Shown: positions 1,950-13,861 of the stretch, one piece after another
Layout: every line of letters starts with the position of its first letter
Position numbering within the stretch: position 1 is the stretch's first letter
Assembly: GCA_963765205.1 (NCBI GenBank)
Contig: CAVXVB010000009.1
Coordinates: 817,425 to 881,424 of the forward strand
Length of the DNA stretch: 64,000 nucleotides
Source: an uncultured Verrucomicrobiae bacterium
GTDB lineage: Bacteria; Verrucomicrobiota; Verrucomicrobiia; Opitutales; JABDGR01
Direction: 5' to 3'
Notes under the pieces: model-generated
Told to the model about the DNA's origin: nothing
The model's database searches: none
The model's input: only the letters and a program-made list of their open reading frames with translations
Translations under genes and position numbers: made by a program

Positions 1950-4725
1950 TTACAGGGAAATCTTATGGCCCGCCGCATGGCGGGTGGTGAACTGCATGTG
2001 AACCTCATGCAGTCGCGCAAGTTCGACAGATTTCATAATCCGGCGTGTCCATTCCGAGGCTTTGACGCGCGGGCCAATTGAGGGTGCCATAGTGGGGGCA
2101 GGCTTGATGTCCAAGGCGAGGCCACGGTCACCAGTTTGCTCGATATTAGCACGCAACTCGGCTTTGTCCGAGGTGAACACGACCACGCGCTTGCGGCCTC
2201 GGGAAATCGCCACATACCATTGATGGCAGTTAGTGGCGGCCCGGTTCGCGGCATCGGCGAAGAGCACGGTGTCCACGGTTTTTCCCTGGGAGGCGTAGGA
2301 AGTGACGACATAGCCGCGATTGAATAGCCGTTGCGAAGGCGACAGGGTCTTTCTTTTCCCCCGGTCATCCTCGACAACGAGCGAGCCGTTTTTACGCACA
2401 CGGCGGATGGTCAGGAGTTCGCCATTGGTCAGCGCATGGCCTTCGATGGACTTCCCATTGAACTTGAGTTGCAACCGGTCACCCGGAGCGACTTCCAATT
2501 CAACCGGCGCGACAACCGCAATTCGATTCGTATAGCGGTAACTCAGGGTAGAGCGACGGTCGTTTTTCAGAAGAACAACACCATGTTCACTGGCTCCGGC
2601 AATTTCGCAAAGATCGCCCTTGGCATATCGGCCGTAGCGTTGCAGAAAATAGACCTGTTGACCAACTCGGTAGAAACTGGCCTCACGTTTCTGCGCCTCA
2701 GTGCAATCCACCGCCTGAAAGGCGGTGAGCGTCGTGCCGCCGCTCAGTTTTCCTTTTGCCTTCAATTGTTCGCGGATGGCATCGTTCACTGCATTCACCT
2801 CAACCCAGGTCTGGGCCACGACCAGGACACTTTCATTGCGGTCAACGCTGGCGAGGTATTCCCGCGCCAGCGTTTCGCGGCGAGCATCCGGTGCGACCTC
2901 GCGGATACAGCCCAGCTTTTCCAGGCGGTCGAATGATTCAGTGATGTTCCCGGACGCCGCCGCTTTGACCGCCTGACGGTATCCATACACAAAGGCCCGC
3001 TCCTTGGCCGATTTTGCGGCGGCGGGATTCTGCCGCTGGATGTATTTTAATTCCGCTGCTTTCAACCCGCAGTATTTCTCAATGGCCCGGAGCGCATCGG
3101 AGGCTTGCACCGCGCCATGCTGCCGGGTGTCACCCGACAGAATCAATCGCCCATCGCGGGCCTTCACCAAGGCCATCAGGTGATTCAGTTGCTTGCCGCC
3201 CACCTGGCCCGCCTCATCCAGGAGCACGACCGCACGCCGGGGCATGGTTCCAGTTTCCAGACAATGCGCCACAGTGGTAGCAGGAAGGCCATCCCCACAC
3301 AAATCAGCCACTTGCTGGCGTTGCGGGGCCAGAACGACCACGGGCAGACCGGCGGCTTGAATACCTTTCATTACCTCCCGCAGGGTGAAACTTTTGCCGG
3401 TGCCCGCGCCGCCGCGAAACAACGTGACGAAATCCCGGCTTCTCAAAATGTGCCTGACTGCCGCCGCCTGTTCTTCCGACAAGACCGGAGACGGTTGGTA
3501 ATCCCGGTTTAAGGCCAATTCCATGCCACACCCATCACGGGCGGCGACCACGATGCCTAATTCGTAGCGCAGCATTTCGCGCGAAGTGAGCCTGTGTGTG
3601 CCTTCCTCGCGGACATAGCCGCGTTTTTCAATGGCTTCGCGCAACGCCGCCAAGTCGAAATCCTGTCCGCGACCATGCGCCAATGCCGCCGCCATCAGTT
3701 CGTAGTCATTCACCACGGAGCGCCGTTCAAAGAGGTGTTCATCCGCCCATGCGACGATGGCATTCACGTCGGCTTTCATGGGGACGTGCTGCTTTGCAAT
3801 CCATAACGAATCCAATGCCGCCTTATCCGCTGCCGACATTTGTTTTGCCCAACGGGGCCGTAATTGACTGGCGGTAGAGTCCTTGATTTTTCGTTTCCGG
3901 TCGTCATGCGCGATCTGTTTGCGGAGGTCACCAGCACTGCCCCGCAACCCCTCATGCTCGATGCGTTTTTGAGCCTCAGCATGGATTTGCTGATGCCGCT
4001 TGGAGAATTGGGCGATGACACTGGCCGGAACCTGCTTGATTTCAAAGTCGCGGGCAGTGGGCACAAGTTCATACCCAAAGCTCCGCAGCCCCTTCGCCAG
4101 TTCATGGTAGTAATAGTGCTCCACGAACTTTTGGGCGCGATACATGCCCGATGCCTCCAATGCCTTCCAACGGTTTTCCACCAGATCAAAGGTGGCATTG
4201 AAGATAACGCAATGGGTATGCAGGTGCGGGTCTAGTTCCCGGCTGGTGTCATGCCGGAAGGCCGCGCCCAAGATGTTCCCCGTCACCCGTTCCCCGTTCT
4301 GGCCGGACTTCCGCACGCGTGTTCCGGCGAACTTTTCGAGTTCAACCATCGCGGTTTTGACCGCCTGATTATGCAGTTCCAAAATACGGACATCCTGCAT
4401 CAGCGCGACCACCGAAACCGACTTTGGCGGGCTAATCGTGAAGTCATAGAACACCCTTCGATTGGCCACCATCTTTCCGTCTTCGCGACGTTTGTCATTT
4501 TGCCGAAGGGTCAATTTCTGACCCGTGCCCGGATTCAATCCCTCGCACAACGCCAGGAATTCTTTCTCACATACCTTGCCTTTGAGACCCAATTTTTCAG
4601 CAGCCTCGCCGAACCATTCACCTGAAACTTTTTCACCCTCGGCGTAGTAATCTCCCACGCTCAAATGCTCGCGAAAAATACTCCCGAGCATGTTGCAGAT
4701 TTAACTGTGGTTTTGGAGTCAACAT
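1950..4725 (-). CDS. MOBF (TrwC/TraI-like) relaxase-helicase, 1-bp frameshift near the N-terminus
   Basis: DYY motif, HDTSRELDPHLHTH HUH motif, Walker A GGAGTGKS, DEAG, SQGKTVD. ATG 4725 has a GGAGG RBS (MLTPKPQLNLQHAREYF) and joins the main frame if one base is removed from the A5 run at 4674-4678. Confidence 0.92.
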
Positions 4726-4750
4726 GGTAAATCCTCCGATTTGACGGGAA

Positions 4751-4885
4751 TCACTTACGAAAACGCAGTCGCGTTTTCATCATGGAGGACGCAGTTCCCC
4801 TTCCGATGGAACGGAAGGTTGCCATCCGCGTAAGTGACGCACGCCGTTACCCATGTTGTGGAGTCAACTGAACGCACCCGCGTAG
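4751..4885. other. Candidate oriT region
   Basis: Directly upstream of the relaxase; IRs TCACTTACG/CGTAAGTGA (4751/4829), GAAAACGC-4-GCGTTTTC and CCTTCCG-6-CGGAAGG. Confidence 0.4.
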
Positions 4886-5219
4886 GCCGTTACCTACTGA
4901 AATCAGGCTAAACGCAGCCCGGCATGACGCCGGTTTCCGACCCTCGCGAAGACGCGCCGCGCCCGCTGGTTGCGTCGCGCCCTCGTGAATGGTGCGGGGG
5001 TAATGAGGCACCGACGGGGAGACGCGGGCGCGAGTCACTTCCGCCGCCGTCCACCTCGCTTGCCGCCACCGGGCGGCGCGCTCAGGCTCCCGGCCCGGCT
5101 CCGCGCCTCGCAGCCCGTGACTCCTCTGGGCCTGTCTAATGGCGCATTTTGGCGCAGCCCGGACGGCATCGAGAATATGGACAGCAGTTGAAATCGAATG
5201 TAAAAAATGGCGCACAAAA

Positions 5220-5373
5220 AGATTGGTTACTCAGCGAGTAACCAATCTCCACTTTCACGGCACAGAGTTAGCGCAAAGATTGGTCACACAGTGTGTGACC
5301 GATCTTCGGGTGCCTTCATTTTTGCAGCGCTAAATTGGCGCTAAGATTCTTTACACAGTGTGTGGAGAATCTT
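5220..5373. repeat. Three related hairpins with AGY loops
   Basis: 5220-5248, 5276-5306, 5343-5373; 13-14 bp arms starting with AGATT. Confidence 0.85.
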
Positions 5374-5805
5374 CAATAAGTTGCGTCATCCTTGCCTAGC
5401 CGGGAGGGAAACGACGTGTCAATTAGCGCCAGAGACGGCATTTTAACCTACCCCAACCACCCCCTCGCGCCTCAATTATATCGCCGCCGTCAAGGTCCGC
5501 TTCGCTTTCCACCTTGACTGCGGCGGAAGAGGCGCAGTTATGGGTTGGTGGTGGGGAATAGCGGTTGGTTAAGCACATGGGCAACCGGCCTTGCTGGCCG
5601 TGTTTGTTGGTTGGCGGATGACTTGCTCGCAGTCGGTATGGTAGTTGTCTGGGTTCGTGGTTGGCCGGTTCGCATATTGCGTTTAGAACCATTGCGCTTT
5701 CAGAACCGCCGCATGTTCTATATTCCAACATGCAGCTCCCGCGCGGGAAGATACACCCATTTTGCATTTCAAAATAGGGTCAGCTTTGAATTCGATTTTT
5801 GCCCT

Positions 5806-6226
5806 AAATAGGCAACACGTGTTGCCTATTTCGTAACATAAAATTGACACGCCGAGCAGCCAACCCAGGGCGCTGCCCAAATACGTACAAAAATCCCGGA
5901 GCCGGAATTTTGCACTAATTAGAAAAACGCACCGCGTTTCGTTTTTTTTACAAAGAAGCGGCGTGGTGTTACCGATGGCGGGAAGGCCGAGGCATTGGCG
6001 TGAGCAATTTTGACCATGCTTTCTGCCAATTGTAAAAATGCCTCGATTTGCGTTATTTATTGACCGATAGGCTCTTTTGCGAAAACGAACCACGTGGTTC
6101 GTTTTCGCGCATCACAAGCCCGATTTGAAATAGCCCCAGCGTTCGGTATCCCAAGCTGTGGGGTTATTCTGAAAACGAAACACGTGTTTCGTTTTCAAAA
6201 TGCAACACACCGTGTCGTTTTTTAAA
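5806..6226. repeat. Array of CACGTG-centred palindromes
   Basis: Perfect palindromes at 5806-5831 (26 bp), 6079-6108 (30 bp) and 6170-6197 (28 bp); degenerate copies near 5923-5946 and 6197-6222. Confidence 0.85.
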
Positions 6227-6237
6227 CCTCCACCGGG

Positions 6238-7458
6238 TCACACGGCCACCGCCAGAGACGGGACTGGCACCGGGAAGGTCGTGGCTACCGTGACAACATG
6301 CCCCTGTCGTTTCGGCAGGATACTGAAGAACTGTTCAGCTTCCGCCGTGCTTTTCAGGTCGAGATAGTGCTTGCGGATGATGCTTTCCGAATTCCCAGCC
6401 TGAAGCGCGGCTTCGCCGATGGAGCGGAATTTAGCGACGTGCATTTAGATGAAGGTATGTCTCATGACATCATGCGATAGGTTGAACTTCACCACCGCCT
6501 TTTCCCGGATATGCTGGAGGTTGGTCGGGATGATGGGATATTTCGCCAGTGGATAGGCCCGCAGCCAGGCCGCAAGATTCGGCTGAATCGTGACCATGCG
6601 CGGCTCTCGCACCTTGGACACTTCGCGATCAATGCGAATGACCCCATCGGCGAGTTTCATATGCTCAGGCTTGAGACGGAGGATTTCACCCGTGCGGAGA
6701 CAAGGCCGGATACCCGCGAACAGGCAGAGGGCGAAGAACGGCACGGCGCTGGGATAGTGGCCCTCGACAAACGCCATGAGTTCCTTCGTCTGTGACGCGG
6801 AGAGCGTCACCGCGCCGCCACGCCGCCGCCGAATCCGGTGGGCTGGTATTTTCAACAGTGGGTTTTCCGAGACCCAATCCCGTTTTAGCGCAAATTTCAG
6901 GAAGCCCGAAACGATGCCGCGCCGATTGTTGTAGGTCTTGAGCGAGGCACGCCGTGCCTCGAAATAGCCCACCAGTCGCGCCCCGGTTAATTCTGCGACG
7001 GTCGCGCCGGGGAAATGTTTTTGCAGGCGCACCAAATCTCGTTTCAGTCGAATCAGGTAAGGCTCTGAAATCAAATCCTGCCCGCGCTCATGCTCTTTCG
7101 TCGCGACGTATCCCGCGACCGCCTCCGCGAGCAATTTTTGCGTCACCGGCTCGCGGTAGTTCGCCAACGCGAACTCGACATAGAATGATAGCGGATGTTT
7201 CTGGCTGGCTACCCGGTGGAATAGCGACTCCGCTTCATGGAGTTGCTCATCCGTCAGGCGAGTGACCGCAGTGTGAACACCGGTCTCGCCTTGGAGGCGG
7301 CAGACTTCGAGAACTTGGCGTTCCGCCTCGGCCTCGGGACGGCTGGGGAAGTTCTTGCGCACGCGCTTGCCGTCCAGCCAGCCGGATACGCGGTAAACGA
7401 TCTCCCCCGAGGGATTCGTGAATTCAGAGATACTAAACGAGGATATTGTGGCATTCAT
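6238..7458 (-). pseudogene. Tyrosine integrase interrupted by an in-frame TAA at 6445-6447
   Basis: FAGIR...HDVMRHTFI* continues in frame as MHVAKF...AGNSESIIRKHY, so the catalytic Tyr lies after the stop. Confidence 0.85.
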
Positions 7459-7500
7459 GACCGATTTGCCACGTCAACTGGCAAATCTGTCGTTGACCTA

Positions 7501-7529
7501 ATTAACTCATTGATTTTTAATGAGTTAAT
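7501..7529. repeat. att-adjacent inverted repeat
   Basis: ATTAACTCATT-7nt-AATGAGTTAAT; a second IR GATTTGCCA-7-TGGCAAATC lies at 7463-7487. Confidence 0.8.
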
Positions 7530-7551
7530 GGCGGAGAGGGATTCGAACCCC
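7529..7551 (-). repeat. att site: duplicated tRNA-Ser 3' end with a 4-bp deletion
   Basis: TGGCGGAGAGGGATTCGAACCCC versus TGGCGGAGAGGGAGGGATTCGAACCCC at 13737-13763. Confidence 0.9.
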
Positions 7552-7747
7552 AGCCGCCGGATTCAGAAGTAATTGAAGGCCGGAAACTTGTCAAAAACGG
7601 CAAAAGGCAGTCCCCAGTCCTGTCCCCCGGTCTGGCTGGTCAAGCGGGAGAAGACGTGGCTGACGTTGTTCTCGCGTGGTCAACTCTGCCCACGAAAGTG
7701 CGCGCCGCCATCCTCGCCCTGGTTGACGCGGCGCAAGGAGGAACCAA

Positions 7748-8923
7748 GTGAGTGCCGAGATTGCCGAGGGCTTGGCCGGCGTCGGGCCGGAGGCCGTCCC
7801 GCATGGCGGGACGGCCCCGGCCCCCGCCGGCCTTCCTAGTCTATTATGTCATAACTCAACTGATAAACTCTCTGACAGTCAGCGCAAGGGGCTGGTCAAT
7901 CTCACGCGCAACGTCAAATGGATGGCAAAAGAACATGGTGTCGAGCGCCTGCTTTTTGGCACCCTGACGCCCTGCCCGAAAATCTATGACATGAAGGAAG
8001 CCCAAAAAGTGTTCAACTCGTTCGCCACGCATTTTGTCCGTCCCCGCTTTCCTGACGCCATCGTGGGGGTGCATCGGGGTAAGGATGGGTTTGTCCATTT
8101 CCATTTTTTGCTCGTGGCCCCGGTCGGGGTCAACGTGAAGGCCGGATTTGACCATGCCGCCGTTGACCATGGCGACTATTCCAGTGCTTGTGAGTGGCTG
8201 CGCGCGGAGTGGAAGGCCTGGCGCGAGGCCACGAATTACAATGGGAAGCGCCCTGACGCCGCCTATCCCCGGATTGGCCGTTGCGAGGTGAAGCCTGTCC
8301 AAAAGAATCCCGAGGCCCTGGCGCGTTACCTCGGTGGCTACCTCTCCAAGGGCATCCGCCAGCGGGTCAGCGGTGATCACCGCGCCCGTTTAATCCGCTA
8401 TTGGGGCCGTTCGCGGGAGTTTCCGCCCGGCGTGGCCTTCACCTCCCCGCGCTCCTGGGTGTGCCGGGCCAAAATCCGCCAATGGGCCATTACAGTCGCA
8501 CTATGTCCCTCGCCCGAAGCGGTGCGCGAGAAATACGGGCCGCGCTGGTTCTGGGACAACAAAGAAGCCATCCATGGTCAAATTCTGACGGAATACCCGT
8601 CCGCCGCGCACGCCTATGCCGATGGACACCTTATGTTCCGAAACATGAGGAACGAGCCAGGGGCAATCCGTTGCGCCCCTGCTGGCACTGAGCTTTTGAC
8701 TCGTCTGGTATTGGAATGCGTGGACGGCGTGGAACGTCTCGTCTCGGTCACCCTGGCGGTCCCAGTGCCTGCGGGTGCCACTGGCCTGACCCTTCACCAC
8801 CTTTGCCGTCCACAGGTCGAGGAGGAGCCGGATGATGAAATAGAGTCAGCGGAGCTTGTTTATGCCGCTTCCGTATCCTCGTGGCCGGACACGGCAAAAA
8901 TAGCCGAAAACAATCCATTTTGA
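7748..8923 (+). CDS. Rolling-circle replication initiator (HUH endonuclease)
   Basis: Motif 1 FGTLT, motif 2 VHFHFL, motif 3 YLGGYLSK; GGAGG RBS before GTG. Confidence 0.8.
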   Translation: MSAEIAEGLAGVGPEAVPHGGTAPAPAGLPSLLCHNSTDKLSDSQRKGLVNLTRNVKWMAKEHGVERLLFGTLTPCPKIYDMKEAQKVFNSFATHFVRPRFPDAIVGVHRGKDGFVHFHFLLVAPVGVNVKAGFDHAAVDHGDYSSACEWLRAEWKAWREATNYNGKRPDAAYPRIGRCEVKPVQKNPEALARYLGGYLSKGIRQRVSGDHRARLIRYWGRSREFPPGVAFTSPRSWVCRAKIRQWAITVALCPSPEAVREKYGPRWFWDNKEAIHGQILTEYPSAAHAYADGHLMFRNMRNEPGAIRCAPAGTELLTRLVLECVDGVERLVSVTLAVPVPAGATGLTLHHLCRPQVEEEPDDEIESAELVYAASVSSWPDTAKIAENNPF

Positions 8924-9237
8924 GAAAACAGGGCCAGGTGCAGGATGGCGGCCTGAGCCTCCTGCTACTGCTCCGATTCCTCCCTTTACCGCCAAAAGAT
9001 TGGTTCAGTGCCGCCGGTTAAGCGCCGTCCGTGACGGGAATCCTCGGAATGGTCGGCGTCAGGCGGGCTTACTCCGCTGTGGCAGACTCGACGAAAGGAC
9101 ATGGGGTAGGGGTCCCATGGCGTTTTGTCGAGTGGGCCAACCGCATTTGCGATCAAATCATTAACCTGGCGGAGCCATATTTACCCACGGATAAATACCC
9201 TTGCCGCCCGCTCTCCAACCGCCCATTTTGCTGACCC

Positions 9238-10245
9238 ATGAAAATGACTGCATCTAAATATCCAAGCTTCAATGTGATTGATGAAGACCCGGTATCGGAT
9301 TTAGAATCGGAAAAGTTTGTTGCTTTAATTAAAGAAATTCTGAAAGGTTTTCGATATTCCGATAGAGAATGGATTGCCGAATATGAACGAAAATTTTTCA
9401 TGTTAATGAGGAAAATTGGATATGGTCAGGCCTCAGGGGTTTTTGGGAAGCGAACAAAACTACGCAGCAAATTAGATACCCTTTGCATGTTTGAATCCAT
9501 AGGAAATTACATTATTAATGGATCAGGGCAAAGCGCGGAAATTAAGAAGTTAATCCCGCGGCATCTATTTTGTATTTGCCCTGAGCATGACGCCATAAAC
9601 ATCACAGTTAAGCACTTCAGGACAGCCAGGCTGCCAACTGGCCCCATTTGGTCTCCTGCAACTGATCGGTTCGTCTTTTGGAACAAACAAAAGTTGATCC
9701 TGGCCTATTCTCAGCACGCTATTGAAAGGATGCAGGAACGAATCCTGATCGGAGATTCTCCATATAGGCAGGTGGAAGAATTGGGCTATTTATTTTTTGT
9801 TCATCTCACTTATCCCGCATGTCTTGGCGAAAACCATTCACCGATGATCGAATTTTATATGATCTTTACGAAGCGTGACGGGGAACTTGAGTATTTAAAC
9901 CAGGTTTTCGAGGAACAAATAGATGCCAAGATTTACTACGACGCCTTTTCCCTGCGCTTTTTTTACCGCGTTGGGTATGGCCCGTTTGTAATCGATAACG
10001 GCTACGCAGTTGTAAAATCAATTCTCTTCCCTGGAATGAAGGGCACGCCAGAAGAAAAGTTAATCTTGGAAAAATCCATGAGCAGCCAAGAGCGCAACAA
10101 TTTAACCCAAGCTTGGAAAGAGGGCATATTTTCCGATCCAAAATCCCAAAAACAAATCGCCCTCCTCGAATTTCTCCGAAATAATGGACTCCAGGTCATA
10201 TTCAACGATGAGGGATTGCGTGCTCGGTCAAAAATCCACCAATGA
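9238..10245 (+). CDS. Hypothetical AT-rich cargo protein
   Basis: 335-aa ORF, low GC relative to host genes; contains YSQHAIERMQER. Confidence 0.7.
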   Translation: MKMTASKYPSFNVIDEDPVSDLESEKFVALIKEILKGFRYSDREWIAEYERKFFMLMRKIGYGQASGVFGKRTKLRSKLDTLCMFESIGNYIINGSGQSAEIKKLIPRHLFCICPEHDAINITVKHFRTARLPTGPIWSPATDRFVFWNKQKLILAYSQHAIERMQERILIGDSPYRQVEELGYLFFVHLTYPACLGENHSPMIEFYMIFTKRDGELEYLNQVFEEQIDAKIYYDAFSLRFFYRVGYGPFVIDNGYAVVKSILFPGMKGTPEEKLILEKSMSSQERNNLTQAWKEGIFSDPKSQKQIALLEFLRNNGLQVIFNDEGLRARSKIHQ

Positions 10246-10356
10246 ATTTTATGGACGTTCCGAAAACTAGCCCTTTCCTCCAAGCCACGATAACCCCAAA
10301 AAAGCGATTTCAGCTCAGTTCTGTTTCAGTTGGTCAACTATGGCGATGGGGCAGTT

Positions 10357-11178
10357 TTAGATCCTCTTGCGATAATCAATGCATTCACGATTGCCCTTAC
10401 TAAGGTTATCAACAGAACATAAAGTTTGTAGATTATCCAGAATCGTGATGCCTCCATTGGCAATTGGAATAATATGGTCTGCGTGCAAATCAACCTTGGT
10501 ACCACATTTGAGACACGCGTAGCCGTCACGCTTAAACACAAGAGCCCGAAGGCGTGACGGTATATGGCGAGAGTATTTTGATCGCGCCACGCTAGATCGA
10601 GGCCCTTTCGGATGAAATTTTACTCTTTTGGAAATAATATCTTTGATCTGTGCTGTGGTCAACTTGACGCCGTAATTGTCAATCACAGCCGCATAAATAC
10701 GATGCCAATATGGAATCAGCTCTAAAAAAGCTTGATATGCATTTTCATGAAAGTCTTCGAGGGTTCCCGCTTCAAACATTCTAAACAGGCCGATCATTTG
10801 CTGATTTTCTAAAGCCTGGAAGTTATGCAGAGTTTTTTCGGCCTTGCGCATTTCATCCCACAAGACAGATATAACTTCGCCTGTCTTATCGTATATTCTT
10901 TGCCGATTGGCATAAAACCTAGCAATAAATGGCTTTGGATGATATCGAAGGAAAGGATCATGAATTAACGCGTAGCCGAAGTGATGAAAATCTAAAATCG
11001 AAGGCTGGTGGATATCATAAAAGTGAAACATAAACATTCGTGTTTCAGTGCCATGTCGCTGTGCAACCCGCTGAGCCTTAAGGCGCGGTTGAATTTCCTC
11101 GGGAAAGTCTCGGACGAGACCCGCGTAGATATCCTTTGAAACCGCCGCGACATCAGAAATTGTGAATTTCGACTTCAT
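10357..11178 (-). CDS. HNH endonuclease domain protein
   Basis: C-terminal VFKRDGYACLKCG...DHIIPIANGG...NLQTLCSVDNLSKG. Confidence 0.85.
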   Translation of the reverse strand: MKSKFTISDVAAVSKDIYAGLVRDFPEEIQPRLKAQRVAQRHGTETRMFMFHFYDIHQPSILDFHHFGYALIHDPFLRYHPKPFIARFYANRQRIYDKTGEVISVLWDEMRKAEKTLHNFQALENQQMIGLFRMFEAGTLEDFHENAYQAFLELIPYWHRIYAAVIDNYGVKLTTAQIKDIISKRVKFHPKGPRSSVARSKYSRHIPSRLRALVFKRDGYACLKCGTKVDLHADHIIPIANGGITILDNLQTLCSVDNLSKGNRECIDYRKRI

Positions 11179-11526
11179 TTTTCGTGGCAGAATTAAGGTT
11201 TCTCAAAAGTTACCTCGTGGCCTTCTTCGGGAAGATTTCGGTTTAGATTTTATCCATCTCCGAGTGCCCCGGCACATAAGGCCAAAACATCCTAAGATGA
11301 TTGTTAAGAAGAACATATAGCAGTCTTTCTGGGTTAAAGAATGAAATTTTAATGCGTGCGTAAAACTATGTAAAGGGAAAATTGGTCAGGAAATTTAGCC
11401 GCCCTACGAGCTCGCGGCCCACCCGGCAACCGGGCCGAGCGTGCCTTGGGCAGCGGTGAAAAAACTGCAACCAGGGGCGAATTTAGTTGTTGACGTATTG
11501 GTGACGGCCCTCAAAATGTTGTCATT

Positions 11527-12237
11527 GTGTCAACGAACTTTCCATTTGTCGAAATTCCACCCGAGATGGCCGAAATCATCGGCGAGCGGGAGGGTGATTC
11601 GCGGGTCTATGCCAAAGAGGGCGTGCAGGAAGAATGTGCGCCTTGGTATGACGCTCTGCATGAAATCGTCGGGCCGTGCGTCAGCCCCGGCGGGGTGGCA
11701 ATGTATTGCCCGGTCACGCGGGCGGCCACCCATCGGCGCATTCGGGAAGGGCGCCTGTCCTGCTTCACCTACCATGTCAAAGAGCGCAAGATCAACTTCT
11801 TTGGCAAATTGCGCGGGCTGCGCGACACGCCTTATTCCTACGTCCCAGTCTCGGAATGTCGGGCTTGGCGCAAGGAATTGGAGGAAAAAGCCCTGCGCAA
11901 CGAGCGCGTTACCCAGGAGGAATTGGAGGGCGCAGTGCCGGATTGGGATGCTGAATTCCTGGAATGGGAATCCCGCTGGCGCAAGGAACAGCGCAAGCTG
12001 GGCGGGCCGCGCAACATCCCGGTGACGATCAAGCTGGCCCGCAAAGAGGTTGAATGCCTGGACCGCCTCGTGGAGCTATTGAAACCCGAGTTTTCGACCA
12101 AAGAGGAATTTATCACCCATCTGCTCAACTATACCACCATGGGGGGCATGAGCGGACTGAGCTTTACCAAGTTCGGCTTTCGGCTCGCCCGGATGTATGA
12201 TGAGGCGGATGCCAGGCGGAAGGAGAAGGAAAAATGA
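11527..12237 (+). CDS. Putative DNA-binding regulator
   Basis: HTH-like segment VSPGGVAMYCPVTRAATHRRIREGRL; possible C-terminal RHH; ATGA overlap with the next gene. Confidence 0.55.
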   Translation: MSTNFPFVEIPPEMAEIIGEREGDSRVYAKEGVQEECAPWYDALHEIVGPCVSPGGVAMYCPVTRAATHRRIREGRLSCFTYHVKERKINFFGKLRGLRDTPYSYVPVSECRAWRKELEEKALRNERVTQEELEGAVPDWDAEFLEWESRWRKEQRKLGGPRNIPVTIKLARKEVECLDRLVELLKPEFSTKEEFITHLLNYTTMGGMSGLSFTKFGFRLARMYDEADARRKEKEK

Positions 12238-12443
12238 GCACTACCAGCAATTTCTTTACTGACCCGCACCGCACCCTCAAGGAGGCTGCGGACTTGCTTG
12301 GTCTAAGTATCTCGACCCTCCGGCGGGAAAAACGTCGCGGTAAACTTCACGTTTTCGAATGGGGTGGCAATGATTGCGTTTTGGATACAGAACTCCGTTC
12401 ATACTGGGAACGCAAAATCCAACAGCCGAAAAAAAAGGATTAG
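12234..12443 (+). CDS. Excisionase-like HTH protein
   Basis: TLKEAADLLGLSISTLRREKRRGKL, directly upstream of the integrase. Confidence 0.75.
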   Translation: MSTTSNFFTDPHRTLKEAADLLGLSISTLRREKRRGKLHVFEWGGNDCVLDTELRSYWERKIQQPKKKD

Positions 12444-12445
12444 CC

Positions 12446-13861
12446 ATGTATCTCGTCAAACCCAATGCCAGCAACCCCTACTACCGGGGCCGTTACACCC
12501 TCGGGCGCAACCCGCGCGAGTATGAGGTCTCGACGCGAACCAAAAACCGGGAGGTGGCCCGGGAACGGCTCAAGCGAATTGTTGCGGAGCATGAGCGCGA
12601 GGATGTCGGCCTGATCGCGCCCAAAGCCGTGCGCGAGGCCCAACAGCGCCCGGTCTTGGATATATTCGCTGAATTCATTGAGGATTTGCGCAGCCAAGGG
12701 CTGAAAAACGATTACATCCGCCACGTCAAAAACCGTTTCCCCAAACTTGTGAAGGCCTGCGGCTGGAAACACCTGGCGGACATGACGCCGAAAAGCATTC
12801 AGGACTGGCGCAAGGCGAACCCGAAATACCGGGCGCGAACTATCAATCATTTTTACGACGCGGCCAATCGCTTCCGCAACTGGGTCAAGCGAACCTACGA
12901 CATTCCCAACCCGATAGAAGGCGTCGGCAAGGTCAAGGTTAGCGCCCGGTATCCCGATGGCCCGCGTGCGTTCTCCAATGAAGAACTTACCCGCCTGTTC
13001 GTCGTGGCGCAGAATTGGAGGCTGCTGTATCGGCTCCTGGCCTTTACGGGGCTGCGCCGGCAAGAAGCCCGGGACCTCCAATGGGGTGACGTGGTGCTGG
13101 ACGAAAATCCGCGCCTGCAACTCCGCGAGGATGCCACCAAAAGCGAGCGGGCGGACACGCTTCCCCTGCCGCCCGAGCTGGCCCGCGACCTCGCCGCCAC
13201 CCGGCCCTGCTACTGGAAGCCCACGGATCGCGTGTTTCGGGAAGGCGTGGCCCGCAACCCCAAGCTCAAGAAAGACCTCCAGGCGGCGGGCATTGAGTTG
13301 GTGGATCGCTATGGCCGTCCCCTGGGCTTCCATACTTTTCGCCGGAGTTATATCACGATGATGCACAACCTGGGCGTGCCGCCGCGTGCCGTGATGCAAC
13401 TGGCCCGCCACAAAAACCCAAACCTGACCAACTGGACTTACACGGACACCACCAAACTGGACTTGCATAGCCATGTCGCCCGGCTGGAAAACTCGATTAT
13501 AAAGGGGCCGGATTCAGCCCCCCCGGTTCGCCCCGATCCCAATCATCCCCCAAAAGCCGCCCCGGAGTCATCCCCACCCCTGTCCCCCGGTCCAACCGGT
13601 AATCCGTGCCTTTCGGTGGATACGAATGGTTATGATAGAGAATCCCGGAAAATAACTTCAAGTGCAGAAGCGGCTGTATTTGAGGAGGATAGACCACCGC
13701 TGGGCACGAATGGCCACGCTGGGCCAAACGGTAAACTGGCGGAGAGGGAGGGATTCGAACCCCCGGTGGACTTTCGCCCACACAGCATTTCCAATGCTGC
13801 ACATTCGGCCACTCTGTCACCTCTCCCGGTTCGGCAGGCTCATGCCGCAAAAGCAGCTTAG
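12446..13861 (+). CDS. Tyrosine integrase; frame reads through att and antisense across tRNA-Ser
   Basis: TGLRRQE, FHTFRR, LARH and YTD catalytic motifs; ATG 12446 lies 2 bp after the xis stop. Confidence 0.92.
   Translation: MYLVKPNASNPYYRGRYTLGRNPREYEVSTRTKNREVARERLKRIVAEHEREDVGLIAPKAVREAQQRPVLDIFAEFIEDLRSQGLKNDYIRHVKNRFPKLVKACGWKHLADMTPKSIQDWRKANPKYRARTINHFYDAANRFRNWVKRTYDIPNPIEGVGKVKVSARYPDGPRAFSNEELTRLFVVAQNWRLLYRLLAFTGLRRQEARDLQWGDVVLDENPRLQLREDATKSERADTLPLPPELARDLAATRPCYWKPTDRVFREGVARNPKLKKDLQAAGIELVDRYGRPLGFHTFRRSYITMMHNLGVPPRAVMQLARHKNPNLTNWTYTDTTKLDLHSHVARLENSIIKGPDSAPPVRPDPNHPPKAAPESSPPLSPGPTGNPCLSVDTNGYDRESRKITSSAEAAVFEEDRPPLGTNGHAGPNGKLAEREGFEPPVDFRPHSISNAAHSATLSPLPVRQAHAAKAA
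13737..13826 (-). tRNA. tRNA-Ser(GGA)
   Basis: GGAGAGG/CCTCTCC acceptor stem, loop TTGGAAA, long variable arm, GTTCGAATC, encoded CCA. Confidence 0.97.

Follow-up and report, generated by a model that had tools for sequence, protein, structure and literature searches.

An integrase gene (int) split by its own attachment site (att) lies in the 64,000-nucleotide stretch of DNA analysed here (the window: positions 817,425 to 881,424 of contig CAVXVB010000009.1, from an uncultured Verrucomicrobiae bacterium), within a 6.2-kilobase (kb) element inserted at a tRNA-Ser(GGA) gene. The DNA itself shows that the gene is split, that its catalytic domain is intact on the int side, that both parts share a reading frame, and that a Shine-Dalgarno (SD) sequence and a stop/start overlap lie at the replication gene rep; we consider it probable (roughly 0.7) that excision would rejoin the integrase (Int) to a detached C-terminal two-helix domain and likely place rep last in a regulator-xis-int-rep transcript. 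The element is a tyrosine-integrase island in a tRNA gene, of the Islander type, with the intact tRNA at one end and its displaced 3' fragment at the other, and it carries in order a startless 66-codon frame (which encodes the detached segment, hereafter the tail), rep, two cargo genes of low guanine-plus-cytosine (GC) content, a putative regulator, an Xis-like protein and int. The features that bear on the split gene and on rep are listed below in window coordinates, with lengths in amino acids (aa).

7529..7551, distal att, a displaced 3' end of tRNA-Ser that lacks 4 bp on its acceptor-stem side; its 16-bp T-arm block spans 7536-7551
7552..7751, plus strand, detached int 3' end (tail): a ~35-aa linker with arm-like repeats, then the two-helix domain
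~7641-7733, plus strand, conserved two-helix domain, with an invariant Trp at 7677
7619..7632, plus strand, 14-bp direct repeat of 13579-13592 in the same reading phase, a putative Int arm-type site
7735..7751, plus strand, SD-like AAGGAGG (7735-7741) and GTGA stop/start overlap between tail and rep
7748..8923, plus strand, HUH rolling-circle Rep, 391 aa
7774..7840, plus strand, strong hairpin (-39 kcal/mol, z score -8.4), candidate double-strand origin
12446..13861, plus strand, tyrosine integrase in its integrated form, 471 aa, of which the final 34 residues are encoded by antisense tRNA and host DNA
13737..13763, proximal att, within the int reading frame
13737..13826, minus strand, intact tRNA-Ser(GGA), the sole tRNA with that anticodon found in the assembly

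The original prediction had described an int without a stop inside the element, reading through att and antisense over tRNA-Ser, and this is what we found: the frame crosses both and stops at 13859-13861, giving a C-terminal Ala-Ala. The protein matches PF00589 (E value 5e-12), and its catalytic residues R204, K232, H296, R299, H322 and Y332 all lie upstream of att, Y332 by ~300 nucleotides (nt). The ATG-less frame of 66 codons described at the other end is equally present, open from 7539 to the TGA at 7749-7751, which overlaps the rep GTG (GTGA, 7748-7751). The two att copies have a 13-bp block and a 16-bp block in common; a crossover in the 16-bp T-arm block is predicted to yield a circle of 6,212 bp with a tail-bearing Int of 505 aa, and one in the 13-bp block a 444-aa Int that lacks the tail. 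The Islander paper locates crossovers at three places: anticodon loop, T loop and T/acceptor junction (PMC4383910). We judged the 13-bp-block crossover unlikely, since the T loop and the T/acceptor junction both fall in the 16-bp block. Small deletions in displaced tRNA fragments are, according to that same paper, a known feature (PMC4383910), and the deletion in the distal att is not an assembly error, because a contig of a second sample from the same study spans 7458-7793 with zero differences, the 4-bp deletion included. An open frame of the tail's length is nevertheless unremarkable alone, as it arises in 11% of base shuffles, and the evidence must therefore come from relatives.

The source genome holds three further complete elements and one remnant with a tail, and the three complete sisters are all in frame at the T arm, in two different frames relative to the tRNA. 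Beyond this genome, a tail profile gave matches in 6 of the 10 family genomes scanned, in 53 of 401 from the class and in 31 of 301 from the phylum. Sixty regions were fetched around 80 non-own matches from the family and class scans (those omitted were mainly near contig ends), and among the 73 loci analysed 38 tails had an Int downstream, of which 34 could be mapped through a T-loop repeat. Int and tail share the frame in 34/34 of these elements from the window's class, including L056, which the script had scored out of frame (33/34) through a wrong 5-mer and which is in frame once the 5-mer is corrected. Among the elements there are 18 different target RNAs, and each of the three frames is in use (by 19, 9 and 6 elements). 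On the Int tree the frame label must change 11 times or more, and sister elements that share a tRNA use different frames, each that of its own tail; as kin are not independent, we place the weight on these frame switches and not on a p-value. Consistent with a continuous coding sequence, the linker from att to the Trp is stop-free in the Int frame in all 34 elements, compared with 6 and 2 in the other two frames, while the Int-side linker is stop-free in 34, compared with 3 and 0, and arm-like repeats across attP, the joined site of the circle, are in phase in 20 of 23 cases. In a control set where an Int lies directly 5' of a tail (tandem junctions or attP forms), only 3/8 are in frame.

The same arrangement extends to Planctomycetota, in which 49 of 201 genomes carry the tail. 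Here, 44 tails in 40 loci comprised 27 without an Int in range, 2 without a repeat and 15 mappable pairs, all of which are in frame (15/15, four of them resting on partial Int matches), with sense-oriented and anticodon-type att among them. Frame continuity with the distal integrase in relatives had been set as a test beforehand and is conserved in both sets, so that the proposed swap of the Int C-terminus draws strong support from 49/49 mapped elements and from the natural fusions described below. The Int-tail frame match is selected, not a product of chance, and is family-wide. A WxxLPxxxRAAILALV motif, which the original prediction described as recurring beside att sites in genomes of the Planctomycetota-Verrucomicrobiota-Chlamydiota (PVC) group, was borne out by the class and Planctomycetota scans. 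A scan with the Int alignment gave no matches in viral contigs and, in genome contigs, two Phycisphaerae loci, neither with an adjacent tail.

The tail is under selection at the protein level. Across 70 aligned tail cores the Trp is invariant, and synonymous differences outnumber nonsynonymous ones in proportion (pS 0.72 vs pN 0.36, a contrast that profile-based selection inflates somewhat); a conserved Leu uses all six of its codons and a conserved Ala likewise all of its own. AlphaFold predicts two helices at a predicted local distance difference test score (pLDDT) of 90. The tail profile matches 10,616 cluster representatives at E <=0.001, the best 150 matches are 33-286 aa long, and gene callers annotate the tail as short open reading frames (ORFs). 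Searches of Pfam, NCBIfam, PHROGs and PDB sequences returned no family for it, Foldseek gave a single match at E 6.7, ESM Atlas matches scored below 0.9 and bore no names, and plasmid and phage collections yielded nothing better than E 3. Nonetheless, natural single-chain proteins exist that consist of Int, a translated tRNA end and the tail (P0008 with 572 aa, P0009, P0007, L182 and L188). Of the 34 tails, only that of the window has an in-frame start with an SD (a GTG at 7656 preceded by GGAG, from which a 31-aa stand-alone product is possible), so that a stand-alone gene is not the family rule, and 11 of 34 tails have no ATG, GTG or TTG at all ahead of the Trp.

Helical pairs of this kind often self-associate. 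Two further proteins, P0014 and P0070, have a signal-peptide-like start and Cys and carry the tail motif three or four times in tandem, apparently reused there outside integrases; to judge from their sequences, the tandem copies are compatible with the idea of self-association. Locus L182 (2121-6072) encodes an Int-tail fusion without an N-terminus, and is preceded by genes that we take to be cas1/cas2/cas4-like.

Judging by its motifs, the window's rep product is a HUH rolling-circle initiator of PF23343-like type. It contains motif I, the HUH motif and YxxxY, and the residues T72, H117, H119, Y194 and Y198 do not vary among 17 aligned homologues; several relatives score above the PF23343 cut-off, and the window protein alone falls below it with a weak score. 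Rep is co-oriented 3' of the tail in 30/34 elements and is never antisense: it starts right at the tail stop in 16 of these, no more than 400 nt away in 13 and farther off in 1, and the other 4 elements lack it. An SD precedes the tail stop in 28/34 elements compared with 5.1 in control windows, the stretch from att to the tail stop holds a sigma-70-like site in one element where 1.7 are expected (the promoter scan was limited to sigma-70 types), and in the window there is no plus-strand terminator-like site on the path from the regulator to rep. The link of int to rep is thus supported by layout, and their co-transcription only after excision, as the original prediction proposed for the expression of rep, would fit this layout. 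The hairpin that starts 26 nt into rep would be the replication origin; a 10-bp motif after it is common to 7/34 elements, and hairpins of -25 kcal/mol or stronger lie behind the tail in 17/34 elements vs 1/34 control stretches.

Several members vary in this region. In L060 (3025-4485, minus strand) tail and Rep form one 486-aa ORF from att onward, and the part of the contig that was fetched contains no Int; on a circle this may be an Int-tail-Rep polyprotein, although it is a single case and may be a frameshift. The tRNA points into the tail in seven elements (L036, L126, L153, L219, L238, L256 and L275), where its promoter could read into the replication end while the element is integrated. 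Two small antisense genes, presumably a PIN-type toxin-antitoxin pair, are inserted between tail stop and rep in L004 and L055, and in L095, L098 and L103 the first gene after the tail, ahead of Rep, encodes a protein family of 89-90 aa that we would guess to be a single-strand DNA-binding protein.

Both halves of the proposed switch have published precedents, the C-terminus swap in Mx8 and the excision-built int-rep operon in SNJ2. A review that covers Mx8 IntP (and Mx9) places attP in int and describes an integration that swaps the C-terminus of an enzyme reported to remain active (PMC6070905). The element resembles Mx8 in that attP lies inside int, 3' of the catalytic domain and in frame with a distal C-terminal segment, and in that the frame reads the antisense tRNA 3' end. 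However, the Mx8 tail is longer (~110 aa) and has no similarity to ours (hhalign probability 0.2%), the Int cores are only distantly alike, the gene that follows in Mx8 begins after 47 nt and has no Rep annotation, and Mx8 is a 49.5-kb tailed phage whereas the element family measures 3-18 kb. The C-terminal segment of Mx8 IntP is reportedly not needed for excision, going by the title of Tojo and Komano 2003. In the haloarchaeal pleolipovirus SNJ2, experiments showed that an int-containing rolling-circle operon is built only after excision, which joins int to replication genes from the other end and creates a new ORF across attP (PMC13107129). Similarly, int and rep are co-oriented across attP in 30/34 of the elements, with rep at the far end when integrated. 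SNJ2 also differs on several points: the junction ORF (orf26) lies downstream of int and does not extend Int, transcription begins within int, its Rep is related to Rep_trans and is not of the HUH type, and the host of the operon is an archaeal virus with structural genes (PMC13107129).

Other att-dependent switches are less alike. The suicidal integrases of archaeal SSV1, pTN3 and pT26-2 have att within their gene, which insertion at a tRNA gene cuts in two, and the review that covers them terms self-disrupting integrases exclusive to archaea (PMC8371274). There, the split parts Int(N) from the catalytic Int(C), both inactive, whereas the element keeps all six catalytic residues on the expressed side and its catalytic domain is not cut from the expressed N-terminal part. 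Mycobacteriophage BPs has an integration-dependent immunity with attP in a gene whose product's C-terminus is altered on integration (PMC4557955); that switch is a repressor gene with an ssrA-like tag on the viral form, in contrast to int and no conserved tag here. Our literature search, which covered few subscription journals, returned no description of the PVC family, its tail or an int-spanning, Rep-coupled element. By analogy, the element would work as Mx8 does for the enzyme and probably in an SNJ2-like manner for replication, with a tail domain homologous to neither.

In the mechanism that we propose, the crossover would take place in the T-arm block, the short integrated Int would carry out excision together with Xis (as reported for Mx8), and the tailed Int would be the integration-competent isoform. 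The helical pair likely serves in self-association or docking, placed at the tip of a flexible linker whose length would follow from its having to encode the ~250-bp attP as well. Ribosomes that complete the tail would restart on rep. Through this coupling and read-through, Rep would be made mainly on the circle and kept from nicking the chromosomal copy of the origin hairpin. The protein role of the tail appears to be primary, and the Rep link a lineage-specific addition. More tentatively, and at odds that we would place short of even, the two-helix domain (found in >10,000 clusters, in a gene that is cut in every chromosome copy and so hidden from annotation) could be a built-in directionality switch, in which one recombination makes the integrating Int and turns on Rep by translational coupling, in tiny self-gating PVC replicons distributed phylum-wide.

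A number of observations weigh against rejoining and the Rep link. A T-arm crossover would strip 4 acceptor-stem bases from the sole tRNA-Ser(GGA), so the window copy may seldom excise; att deletions of this kind occur in at least 8/34 elements, and damaged copies may be partly trapped in the chromosome. A circular state is shown for none of the natural fusions, and one of them, L177, sits in a tandem array. The tails were collected with a protein profile, which favours open, protein-like frames, 4/38 tail-Int pairs were left out for want of a T-loop repeat, 29/44 Planctomycetota tails could not be paired, and the window tail has a possible GTG start of its own. As for replication, the Rep profiles were built from the same elements in which Rep was counted, the Rep start is not at the tail stop in 14/30 Rep-bearing elements, and 4/34 class elements lack Rep. 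Two findings speak against a universal Rep link: no Rep was detected in the 40 Planctomycetota loci, and the fused Int L188 follows a DUF3987 gene. The NTGA overlap is in itself weak evidence, since 30/34 tail stops are TGA. Apart from these points, the circle-closing junction was not found among contigs assembled from the four DNA runs listed for the study, a result that is uninformative either way because contigs drop rare forms, and a terminal repeat was found at 0/121 viral and metagenome loci.

Were the tail a true Int domain, as in Mx8, and rep driven independently, from a promoter of its own or by transcription that enters from adjacent DNA, the overlap would reflect compact packing; the Rep starts away from the tail stop, the tRNAs that point into the tail, the sigma-70 limit of the promoter scan and, in SNJ2, a replication transcript that starts inside int and not at the regulator (PMC13107129) all agree with this. 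We regard it as unlikely given that a sigma-70-like site ahead of the tail stop is no commoner than expected, that Rep is never antisense and that the SD is enriched. Conversely, the tail might be only a translational relay that carries ribosomes from int to rep on the circle, its protein product idle. The conserved SD and overlap, the 16 elements with Rep at the tail stop and the single ORF of L060 would all suit a relay. A relay would need no more than an open frame, however, whereas the tail has an invariant Trp and a pair of amphipathic helices on which purifying selection acts. The tail moreover persists in Planctomycetota elements without detected Rep and ends the Int located after the DUF3987 gene, and we hold this explanation to be quite improbable.

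Two other accounts are less probable still. The swap could control Int stability, with an ssrA-like degron on the integrated form that is replaced by the tail, as the original prediction suggested: the window Int ends in Ala-Ala, as does the tmRNA tag of the source genome, and phage BPs uses attP-dependent C-terminal tags (PMC4557955). Across the family, however, integrated forms end 5-71 residues past att in 24 different terminal dipeptides that vary with the target tRNA, and Ala-Ala is found in 1/34; the degron was therefore rejected as the family mechanism and is very improbable in general, though the Ala-Ala end may have an effect on the window Int alone. Equally hard to sustain is a tail that is a small stand-alone gene or conserved DNA whose frame match is incidental. 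Gene callers do list tails as short ORFs and the window has its GTG with GGAG, yet the 49/49 matches across many frame switches, the synonymous variation, the natural fusions and a start that is not conserved leave it scarcely credible, and the stand-alone gene was rejected on the single SD-preceded start among 34 tails.

If rejoining of Int to its tail holds, a design so far cited from Mx8/Mx9 and archaeal elements would be the rule in a very large PVC integrase family. The chromosomal Ints annotated in that family would therefore be the truncated form, and whoever cloned such an Int for use in the genetics of Verrucomicrobiota or Planctomycetota would leave the tail behind. With its five genes, the element would be a bacterial counterpart of the recently shown SNJ2 excision-built replication operon, of a small size that suits direct tests of the coupling between directionality and replication.

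The remaining features of the element lie between rep and int, and its cargo has a GC content of 42% compared with ~61% for the host.

9080..9138, plus strand, second hairpin, 3' of rep (z score -4.8), candidate terminator or single-strand origin
9238..10245, plus strand, cargo ORF, 335 aa, no family
10357..11178, minus strand, cargo HNH endonuclease, 273 aa
11490..11517, plus strand, sigma-70-like site 5' of the regulator, candidate operon promoter by consensus match only (9/12)
11527..12237, plus strand, putative regulator, 236 aa, no family, with a homologue in 14/34 elements
12234..12443, plus strand, Xis-like helix-turn-helix protein, 69 aa, with an ATGA overlap with the regulator

A second island adjoins the left att (window 1950-7458), and the site is a tandem array at tRNA-Ser. 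The integrase of this neighbour, on the minus strand with its start at 7458, has a frame that stops at 6445, ahead of the last catalytic motifs. The island also encodes a TrwC relaxase-helicase (1950-4691), and palindromic repeats occupy 5218-5374 and 5804-6196. Finally, a contig of run X1 joins window positions 9033 and 11396 across the cargo (a weak join, with a short side of 24 letters), with loose ends at 9010 and 11442, and possibly represents a variant that carries other cargo.

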